From: Escherichia phage vB_EcoM_G2248
Sequence record: MK327932.1
Direction: 5' to 3' (one strand)
Length of the DNA: 64,000 nt
In this document: piece after piece, positions 14,893 through 28,807 of the stretch
Position numbering within the stretch: position 1 is the stretch's first letter
How the letters are laid out: each line of letters opens with the position of its first letter
Notes under the pieces: model-generated
Told to the model about the DNA's origin: nothing
What the model saw: the letters and a program-made list of their open reading frames with translations, nothing else
Databases searched by the model: none
Position numbers and translations under genes: made by a program

Positions 14893-17037
14893 TTATTCAC
14901 GTCCATTTGTATAGTAGTGTTTGAATCGACCGTAACCAGTTTCAATGGTCATTGTTCTTTGGTGAACAATAGCCCAATAACCGTTACAGGAATCTTGCAG
15001 ATACAAATCTTTACCTTTCATAAACTCATTAAAGATTGTTTTCTGCCAGTCATAATAGACAGAATCTTCAATCTTATCCATCCAACCGTGTGGGTCTTCA
15101 AGCAGTTCAACAAGTTCATCGATAACCCAATACGGACACGGACTAAATCGACCTTTACTAAATTCGTTGAACACAGTAACGGTTTTAGCTTCCGGTCTAG
15201 GTTCATCAGGTTCTTCCGGTCGACGATTAACCACAACCTGAACATATTTTGTATAACCGATAATTTCCCCAGAGTCCAACTCATCGTTATTGTTCTGGTC
15301 AGCAAAAGCAACGAATCTATAGACTCCAGAGTCACCTATAGTAGCATTAACTTTTGTGTATATCGGTGTTTTGGGATCGATAATCGGCAACCGAACACCA
15401 TTTTTACTAAACTCATACGTTGGAACGTATGTAGAAGGAGGATTTAATGTCGTTGCTTCTAATGTCAAAGTATCCCCTTCCATAATCTGTACAGGATGAG
15501 GTCCGTCAAATTCCATATTAGGAACAACTTCAACATTATAGGTTGCACGCCCTGCAATATCATAATCATGATGCGCACTATATGGGTCTACACTAGGACT
15601 ATCTCTATATTCATGCGCCCAAATGCCATTATGTTCACGATCCGCAGAGTCAGTAATTTTATACTCTTTAGCCTCAATTGGTAGTTCGGTCACAAAAACA
15701 TCATTTTTTGTTATAACCAAAGAACGAGTTTGAGTAAAATCGCTACTTGCGGGTGGCTCTGGATCGACGATCTTAATAACAATAGGTTCACCAACCTCAA
15801 TATTTCGATAATCGTATTCTTTGTCATAAATGTCAAGCATACGACGGTCGTAAAATAATGGCCTTCCTTTATTGAGGTCATATGCACCATCTTGATTAGA
15901 AGGGGCAACTAGTAATTGTAAAGCAACGCTATTATCATACTGCAAGTCCGATAAAGTAATTCGGTCATAACCTTCATCGCCATATTTTTTGCTTTGTAGA
16001 GTTTTACCACCCAACATCCACGTAAAATAAACATTATTATTAATCAAACTATAATGTCGATTCCACGTATTATCGGATGTTACTAATGGCATATCTAGAT
16101 TGACGGTGGACCCAGAAGGATAACGAAATTCAACGGAATTAAAATCACGATCAAAAAATTCATTGTCTTTGATTGTTACCGTGAATCTATGACGATCACC
16201 ATCAATATATGCTGTCCCTTCTCTGGTTTCACTTGCGGCCTTATATGCACGAACCAAAGCAACATAAACACCCGCATCGGTTTCTTGAGCATGTTTCGTT
16301 ACAAACAGAGTCCTGTCTGTAGATTCATAAATTAAGCTACCATCTTCTCTTTCCAGACGATAACGGACAACGGTATATTCATCATTGGCGGGAGAATCGT
16401 CTGTCACCGTAAAATAGACAGGAGCATATTTCTGTGCGTTAAAAATTTCCGCGCTTTCCTGAATGGTGGCCTCAAACGGATAAACAAATTTCACGTCACC
16501 CGCTTCATCGCTAAGTTCCATTCTATATGTGCCAGAAAATTCAGGCCATGCAAATTTTGCAATTTTAAATTCACGATGGTCTAAACCAAGATCCCCGTCA
16601 ATAGTATCAACAAGACCGTCATTATAATAAAGGTCGATAGAAATGTTTTCTGGGATATGAATACGAAAAACAATTTTAGCCTTTATTTCGTCACCAACCA
16701 CAAAGGAAGTTGGAGGATATACATATTCAACATACTGATTATCAAATAATTCAAATGTGAAATTTTCCGTGCCGATATCAACGGATTCACCAGCAAAATC
16801 ATTATCATCTTGGGCATAGCCACGAACATTAACAGACCATCCTGTTTTATCGCTTTCTTTCACAGATTTTAATTCAAAAGACGGTGTATCGGTTGTAGCA
16901 ACAACCACCCCACCTTTTTTCCAAACATAACCTTTTTTCGGTTTAGTTGGATCATCTGATTCGGCAGCAATTGAGCACGCGAACGTATGAGGAAGCCAAA
17001 TGGTTGTGTTAATGCTAGTATCTTTTACTTCTGGCAT
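14893..17037 (-). CDS. large hypothetical protein (714 aa)
   Basis: Long ORF, ATG 17037 with RBS AGGGGGA; no counterpart recognised among T4 genes. Confidence 0.6.
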   Translation of the reverse strand: MPEVKDTSINTTIWLPHTFACSIAAESDDPTKPKKGYVWKKGGVVVATTDTPSFELKSVKESDKTGWSVNVRGYAQDDNDFAGESVDIGTENFTFELFDNQYVEYVYPPTSFVVGDEIKAKIVFRIHIPENISIDLYYNDGLVDTIDGDLGLDHREFKIAKFAWPEFSGTYRMELSDEAGDVKFVYPFEATIQESAEIFNAQKYAPVYFTVTDDSPANDEYTVVRYRLEREDGSLIYESTDRTLFVTKHAQETDAGVYVALVRAYKAASETREGTAYIDGDRHRFTVTIKDNEFFDRDFNSVEFRYPSGSTVNLDMPLVTSDNTWNRHYSLINNNVYFTWMLGGKTLQSKKYGDEGYDRITLSDLQYDNSVALQLLVAPSNQDGAYDLNKGRPLFYDRRMLDIYDKEYDYRNIEVGEPIVIKIVDPEPPASSDFTQTRSLVITKNDVFVTELPIEAKEYKITDSADREHNGIWAHEYRDSPSVDPYSAHHDYDIAGRATYNVEVVPNMEFDGPHPVQIMEGDTLTLEATTLNPPSTYVPTYEFSKNGVRLPIIDPKTPIYTKVNATIGDSGVYRFVAFADQNNNDELDSGEIIGYTKYVQVVVNRRPEEPDEPRPEAKTVTVFNEFSKGRFSPCPYWVIDELVELLEDPHGWMDKIEDSVYYDWQKTIFNEFMKGKDLYLQDSCNGYWAIVHQRTMTIETGYGRFKHYYTNGRE

Positions 17038-17059: not shown

Positions 17060-17458
17060 TTAAGCCAGTCGAGTGAGTTTATAAATGGTTTTAAAGCATA
17101 GAGCTTTGATATCGTCTAAAACGCTCTGTAACGAGCTATCAACATCATTATAAATCTCACTAGCCATTTGCGTTAACTCTTGCAAATAGGCAATTTCGCT
17201 AATCTCCTTGCGGACGACCAACGTTGGTTGATAACGACCAGTGATCCCAATATTGGTTTCAGTGAAATTATCAACCAATTCTTGCATTTCAAGATAGAAC
17301 TCTTCTAGCGCCTTATGTTTTGCATAAGAACCAGGACCAGTCACCCCAAAATGCGCAGAATGCATATAAGTAACACTCATCAGACATTCACCGATAAAGC
17401 GGTCAACTTTATTAGCTTTCCCGTCTTCGGACGTCTTTCGAAAATCACTGAATTTCAT
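17060..17458 (-). CDS. hypothetical protein
   Basis: Start placed at ATG 17458 behind RBS GGAGAATC. Confidence 0.45.
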   Translation of the reverse strand: MKFSDFRKTSEDGKANKVDRFIGECLMSVTYMHSAHFGVTGPGSYAKHKALEEFYLEMQELVDNFTETNIGITGRYQPTLVVRKEISEIAYLQELTQMASEIYNDVDSSLQSVLDDIKALCFKTIYKLTRLA

Positions 17459-17747
17459 GTTCTCGATTCTCCATATTATGCAACATAACAAATTGGTTTG
17501 CGGCATATTCCCCCATAATAAAACACTGCTTAGAGTCCATACATTTACTACGAGCGTACATCTTCATAATGTGGGCATGAAATTTCTGGCTGGTTTCAAT
17601 GGAAGGAGATATTTTGTTTACATATACTATCATCGCACCGTCGAAATAATCAGTAAAGTCACCAGTTAGATCATATTGATCAGCACTGACACTTCCGACC
17701 GCTGTCAAGCATATTGCCGTTGTTAGAGTTTTACGAATAAATGACAT
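17445..17747 (-). CDS. rI-like lysis-inhibition regulator candidate (signal-anchor plus periplasmic domain)
   Basis: N-terminal hydrophobic segment; Y-x3-C-x5-C-x3-G-x2-A-x-Q pattern resembles T4 RI (from memory); lies just downstream of tk. Confidence 0.4.
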   Translation of the reverse strand: MSFIRKTLTTAICLTAVGSVSADQYDLTGDFTDYFDGAMIVYVNKISPSIETSQKFHAHIMKMYARSKCMDSKQCFIMGEYAANQFVMLHNMENREHEIQ

Positions 17748-17780
17748 GAGTCATTCCCCCAGATTGAAAATATTCAGTTA

Positions 17781-17788
17781 TATTTATA
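17781..17788 (-). promoter_or_regulatory. late promoter TATAAATA
   Basis: Exact TATAAATA on the minus strand about 33 nt upstream of ATG 17747. Confidence 0.5.
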
Positions 17789-17815
17789 ATCTGGGGCTTT
17801 ATTTATGATTAACTC

Positions 17816-19567: not shown

Positions 19568-19927
19568 TTAGTCACGGGAAGACAACCCAGCCATAAAACG
19601 GCTTAACAGTGTGTCGCGATAAGCAAAGCATAATTGCTTATCAGGGGCAGTATCACACAGGTTGCGTTTTGTTTTAGCAAAGCTGGCAATACTCAGATCC
19701 CATGCTCGATTTTTTCGTTTTTCGTCTCGACCTTGTTTGTATGCTTCATCAAGTTCGAGCGCGATAAAATCACTACACATGTTATCATCATCACAGAAAG
19801 TTTTAATGATCTTTTTGTTGATCTCAAATCCTTTGTATTCGAACTTTGGATAATGGCGCTCATTACTAGCAAGCGCACCAGCCGATAACATCATAGCAAT
19901 CATAGCAATTATTGTCAACTTTTTCAT
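19568..19927 (-). CDS. secreted/periplasmic hypothetical protein
   Basis: N-terminal signal peptide MKKLTIIAMIAMMLSAGALA; four Cys; RBS GAGGAA. Confidence 0.5.
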   Translation of the reverse strand: MKKLTIIAMIAMMLSAGALASNERHYPKFEYKGFEINKKIIKTFCDDDNMCSDFIALELDEAYKQGRDEKRKNRAWDLSIASFAKTKRNLCDTAPDKQLCFAYRDTLLSRFMAGLSSRD

Positions 19928-19934
19928 ATATTCC

Positions 19935-20525
19935 TCAATAGCGTTTAGTCTTAAGAATGCCTTTACTCTTTAGATGGTTGGCCTTTTTTAGTACGTCATC
20001 AGCATAACCTAATCCGGCTTTATAGTTCCATCCAGCATTGTAAGAAGCTAGCGCGAGTCGGATATTACCGTTTCGAACATCCAGCCAGTATGCTAACTCA
20101 TCCATCGCGTAGAATGCAGAAACCTCGCGATTCATGATAAAGTTGATAGTCTGGCGATCACTCATTTTAACACCGCGCTTTGCATTTTTCGCTTTCACCG
20201 TTTTAAGGTAATTTTGAAATAATCCATAAGCATGATGATTTTTCTTTGGTGCTAAGTTTGCACCCGCGCTTGATTCTTGCCATGCGATACCCGCCAGGAT
20301 GTGGCCTAAACCCTTTCCGTCATAGCGAATATTCGGATGGTCATTTTTCAACTTACCGCTTTTCTCGAATTGTTCGCCATATTGATAGGCGAAATGTAAA
20401 TTATCTAGTTGGTGTGCTGTAAAGTTGTCTATCGGCGCTTTTTTGATCGGTGCGCTAGTCGATGCGTGTGTAGCACCAACGGCTAGTGACAGACTCAATA
20501 CTATCGCTTTTAGAACTTTTAACAT
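19935..20525 (-). CDS. secreted lytic transglycosylase (SLT domain)
   Basis: Signal peptide; SLT motifs GIAWQESS and AYGLFQ. Confidence 0.65.
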   Translation of the reverse strand: MLKVLKAIVLSLSLAVGATHASTSAPIKKAPIDNFTAHQLDNLHFAYQYGEQFEKSGKLKNDHPNIRYDGKGLGHILAGIAWQESSAGANLAPKKNHHAYGLFQNYLKTVKAKNAKRGVKMSDRQTINFIMNREVSAFYAMDELAYWLDVRNGNIRLALASYNAGWNYKAGLGYADDVLKKANHLKSKGILKTKRY

Positions 20526-28588: not shown

Positions 28589-28807
28589 TTATTTATATCG
28601 CTTTCTCTCGCGACGTTTTTGATCTTCTTCCTTGATAGAGTTAAATGCATCAAAAAGACACATGACACTAATAATAAACATAACCGTATTTTCTACGGTA
28701 TCCCACGGCTTCGCATCAGTACAGATCCCCCAAACGGTAAGAAATGCAAATAAGGCAGAAGAGATCACAAGAATGATACTTGCTAAAATATAAAAAGTCA
28801 TTTTCAT
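28589..28807 (-). CDS. small membrane protein
   Basis: Hydrophobic 72-aa ORF. Confidence 0.4.
   Translation of the reverse strand: MKMTFYILASIILVISSALFAFLTVWGICTDAKPWDTVENTVMFIISVMCLFDAFNSIKEEDQKRRERKRYK

Follow-up and report, generated by a model that had tools for sequence, protein, structure and literature searches.

The locus described here lies on the minus strand of the window (the whole 64-kb stretch of DNA that was analysed), where a small gene sits between a homologue of T4 rI.-1 and the thymidine kinase gene, tk. With a probability of about 0.88, the small gene is rI of an RB49-like (Krischvirus) T4-type coliphage, encoding an antiholin of the RI family. The original prediction had placed an rI-like antiholin in a 100-aa ORF at 17445–17747. 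The ORF is exact, with an ATG start, 100 codons and a stop on the minus strand, and the proposed identity is supported by Pfam PF24205, PHROG 1246, the predicted fold, the gene order and orthologues annotated as rI. The features of the locus are the following.

17060–17458, minus strand: rI.-1, a DUF5856 protein of 132 aa beginning MKFSDF... (PHROGs label "starvation-inducible regulator")
17445–17747, minus strand: rI coding sequence, ATG-initiated, 100 codons plus stop; RI-family antiholin precursor
17448–17681, minus strand: periplasmic three-helix RI domain, codons 23–100, with helices at about 30–45, 50–66 and 72–99 in the predicted model
17511–17543, minus strand: C-x5-C-x3-G, codons 69–79, a cysteine pair (probable disulfide) and a glycine
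17682–17747, minus strand: predicted Sec signal peptide or transient membrane anchor, codons 1–22, MSFIRKTLTTAICLTAVGSVSA, from sequence and hydropathy, with the predicted site V-S-A↓D-Q
17757–17796, minus strand: predicted RNA hairpin in the spacer, stem CCCCAGAUU / AAUCUGGGG, 9 bp
17781–17788, minus strand: TATAAATA, an exact match to the T4-type late-promoter box, within the hairpin, 34 nt 5' of the rI start codon
17816–18412, minus strand: tk, thymidine kinase (Pfam PF00265, E 2e-51; PHROG 592, E 8.9e-80), a synteny landmark

The rI product (MSFIRKTLTTAICLTAVGSVSADQYDLTGDFTDYFDGAMIVYVNKISPSIETSQKFHAHIMKMYARSKCMDSKQCFIMGEYAANQFVMLHNMENREHEIQ) is encoded 68 nt downstream of tk, with a candidate Shine–Dalgarno sequence, GGGGG, 8 nt ahead of its ATG. 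At its 3' end, rI overlaps rI.-1 by 14 nt (17445–17458; the overlap is 4 nt in T4), suggesting translational coupling, and the two genes are probably co-translated. The rI.-1 product matches Pfam PF19174 (E 1.1e-20) and PHROG 858 (E 2.6e-43) and aligns end to end with T4 RI.-1 at 33% identity (E 8e-26); its start is most likely the ATG at 17458, as in T4 and JSE, rather than the ATG at 17506 that gives the longest ORF. A genetic role of rI.-1 in T4 lysis inhibition has been reported (PMC2962797). Beyond tk come two small ORFs, a gene for a tk.4-like macro-domain protein, vs and vs.1, all on the minus strand, and the order rI.-1, rI, tk, and then tk.4, vs, vs.1 and regB, is common to the window, T4 and JSE. 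The position relative to tk that had been put forward in favour of an rI assignment therefore corresponds to that in T4, except that T4 has rI.1 between tk and rI, where neither the window nor JSE has it.

The 2-kb region around rI is 95–96% identical to that of RB49, JSE, GEC-3S, KFS-EC, ECD7 and about 50 other Krischvirus genomes, the DNA being about 95% identical across rI.-1, rI and tk, with the same spacer hairpin and TATAAATA box. In these phages (RB49, JSE, GEC-3S, ECD7, Phi1, KFS-EC and others) rI occupies the same place, and its product is 92–97% identical to that of the window; the JSE protein, at 92%, differs by a few substitutions, at T10, L27, E80, N84 and R95, for example. The gene is already annotated ("rI lysis inhibition regulator") in the RB49 records of GenBank and RefSeq and in those of JSE, GEC-3S, ECD7 and many other phages, and is thus already known.

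Directly beyond rI.-1 lies a 714-aa ORF (14893–17037, minus strand). The C-terminal part of its product weakly matches PHROG 1149, "Hoc-like head decoration" (E 4e-11), and its relatives match no Pfam family. The ORF is covered to at least 80% by only five phage records, and among the records listed it is present at full length, at about 78% identity, in three (Brandy, SFHK24 and UPWr_E1); JK32 and metagenome relatives have versions of 706–713 aa. Elsewhere there are remnants, amounting to 28 codons in RB49, JSE, GEC-3S and others, and to the last 68 codons in Phi1. The window phage carries a full-length Hoc-like ORF that RB49 and JSE have lost, and the site looks like an indel hot spot. On the far side of tk, vs (19568–19927, minus strand; "valyl-tRNA synthetase modifier", 119 aa) encodes a protein with a signal-peptide-like start, MKKLTIIAMIAMMLSAGALA..., as does vs.1 (19935–20525, minus strand; 196 aa, with an SLT lytic-transglycosylase domain, Pfam E 5e-6), which begins MLKVLKAIVLSLSLAVGATHA...; T4 Vs, too, is signal-peptide-like at its start (MTKILVLCIGLISFSASASA...). 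Such a signal for export is unexpected in a protein whose name makes it the modifier of an enzyme of the cytoplasm, and from their N-termini it is likely that Vs, Vs.1 and RI form a cluster of periplasmic proteins.

That the protein belongs to the RI family is shown by its profile matches, its predicted fold, the family residues it retains and the order of the genes around it. The rI product matches Pfam PF24205, "T4-like virus antiholin", at 79.4 bits (E 1.8e-22; curated cutoff 27 bits), with residues 4–97 aligned on positions 3–94 of the 96 in the profile. Residues 1–97 match PHROG 1246, "lysis inhibition" (E 2.2e-25), and a second PHROG with the same label, 9446, is matched at E 3.5e-11. 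Direct comparison with T4 RI, which had been suggested as a check, gave a borderline result: BLASTP found 23% identity over 53 aa (24 bits, E 1e-4 in a single comparison), in a collinear, gapless alignment of residues 41–93 on 41–93, and tblastn with T4 RI against the window returned no match at E ≤ 10. A phmmer search of the PDB with the rI product placed the T4 antiholin chains first, at E 0.056. Since the pairwise similarity to T4 RI is borderline, the assignment rests on profile, fold and synteny taken together. The AlphaFold2 model has three helices, with residues 30–99 at pLDDT 80–89 (mean pLDDT for the run 72; one of the five models confident), from an input alignment that was shallow, at about 11 sequences, because the protein search gave 11 close relatives only. 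When this model was compared with the PDB by Foldseek, the top matches were chains of T4 RI from its complexes with the holin T, 6psk_R and 6pxe_E, with target-normalised TM scores of 0.79–0.82, a probability of 1.00 and an rmsd of 1.8–1.9 Å over 67 columns; the runner-up after the T4 RI chains had a TM score of 0.38. The Foldseek E-value for the T4 RI match, 0.037, is modest, as the protein is small.

The N-terminus of the rI product is organised like a Sec signal peptide or a signal anchor: MSFIRK, with two positive charges (R5 and K6), is followed from residue 7 by a moderately hydrophobic core of 14–15 residues, TLTTAICLTAVGSV, and then by V-S-A↓D-Q. The core is rich in Thr, Ala, Gly and Ser and has a mean Kyte–Doolittle value of 1.45 over residues 7–21; the 11-residue maximum is 1.84, at residue 15, compared with 2.5 in T4 RI. 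Judged by eye and from hydropathy, and by analogy with T4, signal peptidase I probably cleaves after V-S-A22. Val at −3 and Ala at −1 of the predicted site are found in all 11 close relatives. The predicted mature product has 78 aa and is acidic, with a pI of 5.4 (73 aa and pI 4.9 for T4 RI). In T4 RI, cleavage after I-E-A24 has been shown experimentally and the signal-anchor-release (SAR) interpretation has been withdrawn (PMC8385771); the N-terminal segment is now taken for a Sec signal peptide that is removed slowly (PMC8385771, PMC11413866). The "signal-anchor-like" segment of the original prediction is right as regards the hydrophobic N-terminus, whereas wording that follows the SAR model has been overtaken by the T4 result. 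RI cleavage sites have been described as atypical and deliberately poor (PMC11413866); the V-S-A↓D site of the window protein, by its sequence, looks more canonical than these.

Could the segment nevertheless be a true, uncleaved SAR domain, so that RI would act only while tethered and be released intact upon depolarisation, as in the older model for T4? The weakly hydrophobic core, with its many Thr, Ala, Gly and Ser residues, is typical of SAR domains, and T4 RI supports lysis inhibition while anchored in the membrane (PMC11413866). On the other hand, a V-x-A peptidase motif follows the core immediately and is kept in every close relative, and the T4 protein, for which the SAR view was first held, is cleaved. 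An uncleaved anchor is therefore improbable, although it is the strongest of the alternatives considered here, and a cleavable signal peptide is the preferred reading of the N-terminus.

The periplasmic domain carries the residues by which the family is recognised. In an alignment of RI proteins from Krischvirus, T4, CC31, an Aeromonas phage, Acj61, PMBT1 and PS2 (genera Krischvirus, Tequatrovirus, Karamvirus, Tulanevirus, Lasallevirus, Slopekvirus and Muldoonvirus), V41, Y42, S49, S53, F56, C69, C75 and G79 are invariant, and all are present in the rI product. C69, C75 and G79 are also invariant among the close relatives, and conserved disulfide cysteines and a strictly conserved G79 have been described for the RI family (PMC11413866). 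The C-terminal pattern first proposed, Y-x3-C-x5-C-x3-G-x2-A-x-Q, was correct in its core, C-x5-C-x3-G, but miscounted by one residue as a literal pattern: the actual motif is Y64-x4-C69-x5-C75-x3-G79-x2-A-A-x-Q85. In T4 RI it is Y64-x4-C69-x5-C75-x3-G79-x3-A-Q, with C-x5-C-x3-G at identical residue numbers. Within this motif, only C69, C75 and G79 are common to all seven genera, where residue 64 is Y or W, the spacing between the cysteines ranges from 2 to 5, and the Ala and Gln vary.

How far does the holin-binding surface agree with that of T4 RI? Mutants of the T4 protein indicate that "interface 1" is the one interface of importance in the crystal complex: lysis inhibition is abolished by Y42A, Y42L and F56A, strongly reduced by F30A, and reduced by M34A and Y57A, while the S53A/E54A double mutant has lost it and E54A alone has no defect (PMC11413866). 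F31, F35, Y42, S53 and F56 of the rI product align with F30, M34, Y42, S53 and F56 of T4 RI, so that five of the seven interface-1 residues are kept, within the classes allowed in PMC11413866. The other two positions deviate, with Gln in place of E54 and His in place of Y57. Among the 11 close relatives, position 54 is Q or K and position 57 is H (Q in one), making Q54 and H57 typical of the Krischvirus clade on this comparison. E54 and an aromatic residue (Y, F or W) at 57 are "almost always" present in the RI family (PMC11413866), a wording that by itself makes them no strict family requirement. Q54 can still hydrogen-bond to Arg104 of the holin T.

The holin partner itself is documented, at the level of sequence, in the relative JSE only. 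No homologue of T was found by tblastn in the 64-kb window, as expected from the place of t, beyond the tail-fibre genes. The JSE T holin has 218 aa and is 49% identical to T4 T, and its segment SFRPKNLNYFVD, which includes R104, Y110 and F111, is identical to that of T4. In the current model for T4, RI is exported via Sec and slowly cleaved, and blocks the surface by which T self-associates, while free RI is degraded; periplasmic DNA of the superinfecting phage is thought to stabilise the RI–T complex (PMC8385771, PMC11413866). By analogy, the same mechanism very probably operates for the RI of the window. The precursor would be inserted via Sec by its N-terminal signal segment and would remain tethered to the membrane during slow cleavage, here probably after V-S-A22. 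Whether tethered or cleaved, the three-helix periplasmic domain would bind the periplasmic C-terminal domain of T one-to-one, through the hydrophobic interface 1 formed by F31, F35, Y42, S53 and F56. By occupying the oligomerisation surface of T, RI would postpone hole formation, endolysin release and lysis. Released RI that is not bound would be unstable, and the block would last only as long as a superinfection signal stabilises the RI–T complex, which is the state of lysis inhibition. For the window protein, everything said here of export, of processing after A22, of an interaction with T and of a lysis-inhibition phenotype is inferred from its T4 counterpart.

A different possibility is that a protein with the RI fold has drifted to another role, or has become a weakened antiholin, and that phages of the RB49 type have no classical lysis inhibition triggered by superinfection. 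Q54 and H57 stand where the family almost always has Glu and an aromatic residue, and the more canonical V-S-A↓D site could mean faster release and turnover. A literature search found no lysis-inhibition experiment on RB49 or any other Krischvirus. Homologues of the accessory genes were also not detected: tblastn with T4 RI.1 and RIII returned nothing in the window or in the two stretches of JSE that were covered, 43.6–57.6 kb and 100–166.4 kb (80 kb), although homologues may have been missed, as these proteins are small and fast-evolving. (At the place of T4 rIII in JSE, just before gene 31, there is only an unrelated 54-aa ORF; locus L015, 29818–29982, minus strand.) Against a change of role, Y42, F56 and S53 (of the S53/E54 pair), the loss of which abolishes T4 lysis inhibition, are all kept; Gln retains the hydrogen bond to Arg104 as an option and His is aromatic; and R104, Y110 and F111 on the surface of the T partner are unchanged in JSE. 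The role of rIII is minor even in T4, according to a passage in PMC8385771. In addition, strong purifying selection and synteny across genera argue for a retained, shared function. Taken together, these points make a drifted or weakened protein unlikely, slightly more so than an uncleaved anchor, and a working antiholin remains the preferred interpretation.

The selection is evident in the coding frame. Compared with distant relatives, for which synonymous sites are saturated (dS 1.2–2.1), the dN/dS of the rI frame is 0.06–0.11; the value of 0.35 obtained with the near-identical JSE gene derives from 15 substitutions. These low ratios, together with profile E-values of 1.8e-22 and 2.2e-25, make rI more than a chance ORF; it is a real gene under purifying selection. 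AT-rich phage DNA does yield many spurious ORFs, and long stop-free stretches run antisense to rI (45–98 aa in relatives), but the idea that the frame arose by chance, or that the true gene is the antisense ORF at 17457–17669 (plus strand, 70 aa), is rejected on the dN/dS of the minus-strand frame and is further contradicted by the full-length profile matches, the Shine–Dalgarno run before the ATG, an antisense stretch that is down to 45 aa in one relative (L012), and neighbouring genes that are all on the minus strand, leaving it a negligible probability.

When would the antiholin be made? The spacer between tk and rI contains a predicted RNA hairpin with a minimum free energy of −25.5 kcal/mol (z −5.1 to −5.75), and no shuffled sequence was equally stable. 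As part of its 3' arm, all but one of the five G residues of the rI Shine–Dalgarno sequence (plus-strand positions 17756–17760) are base-paired. The spacer is 96–99% identical across 56 Krischvirus records. In six relatives with RI proteins 75–96% identical to that of the window, the hairpin arms and the TATAAATA box are invariant, while the loop and the 5' flank vary; with arms that do not change, these relatives show no covariation, and a function for the hairpin is therefore inferred. A role as a terminator was rejected, as there is no U-tract, and no intrinsic terminator was found around rI. A second small hairpin is predicted at 17739–17756 (minus strand; GAAUGAC / GUCAUUU, 7 bp), whose loop and stem take in the start codon of rI.

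The TATAAATA box lies inside the larger hairpin. The sequence is not enriched in the window (7 copies found, 6.25 expected), so that its assignment as a late promoter rests on position and conservation; another minus-strand copy, at 28590, falls where a small ORF ends. In T4, too, the box occurs in the spacer that follows tk, before rI.1 and rI. A scan for sigma-70 promoters around rI gave scores no better than those of shuffled sequences. From its sequence context, rI is probably served by a late promoter in the tk–rI spacer. A transcript begun just downstream of the box would be without the 5' arm and folds at −8.9 kcal/mol only (the second small hairpin persists in this modelled transcript), which points to late transcripts as the main templates for the translation of rI. 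It is possible, though for the present tentative, that translation of RB49-type rI is switched by the origin of the transcript: messages reading through from tk would sequester the Shine–Dalgarno sequence, and those begun at TATAAATA, having no 5' arm, would be translatable. Similar translational control by a hairpin and a late promoter operates in T4 gene e (lysozyme) and soc. For rI of T4 itself, no hairpin over the ribosome-binding site was seen by eye, in contrast to the window. If the switch is real, the supply of antiholin would be confined to late infection, and the lysis-inhibition circuit would be simpler than that of T4 and differently wired, with no detectable rI.1 or rIII and with Q54 and H57 on the holin-binding side of its antiholin.

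The comparison with T4 can be drawn together as follows. T4 RI (NP_049717; PDB 6PSH, 6PSK, 6PX4 and 6PXE) has 97 aa and the RI of the window 100 aa. Both have an N-terminal Sec signal segment and a three-helix periplasmic domain (TM about 0.8, from the predicted model), and they share V41, Y42, S53, F56, C69, C75, G79 and an aromatic residue at position 86, as well as the gene order rI.-1, rI, tk and a late-promoter box after tk. They differ in overall sequence (23% identity over 53 aa, below tblastn detection), at residues 54 and 57 (Q and H in the window; E and Y in T4), in the cleavage site (V-S-A↓D, as predicted, compared with I-E-A↓N), and in the presence of rI.1 between tk and rI in T4 only. 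The same logic, in which a phage protein holds the holin inactive and thereby tunes the time of lysis, is found in lambda S107, P2 LysA and the system of phage ICP1 (passages on antiholins in PMC11413866 and PMC7182436), which are unrelated to RI in sequence and architecture. The antiholins of lambda and P2 are integral to the membrane, which they cross with two to four helices, whereas RI, whether secreted or tethered, is a small periplasmic domain and has the periplasmic part of the holin as its target.

Beyond correct annotation, the identification of rI carries little weight, since the gene annotation, the Pfam family and crystal structures of the T4 RI–holin complex already exist. As a natural and highly diverged variant, about 23% identical to T4 RI, it does have a modest value. 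Between 2021 and 2024, the T4 model of lysis inhibition was revised to include slow cleavage of the signal peptide and a one-to-one complex formed via interface 1. Because the RI of the window keeps Y42, S53, F56 and the cysteine pair, and differs at E54, Y57, rI.1 and the peptidase site, it could serve as a comparative test of these revisions.
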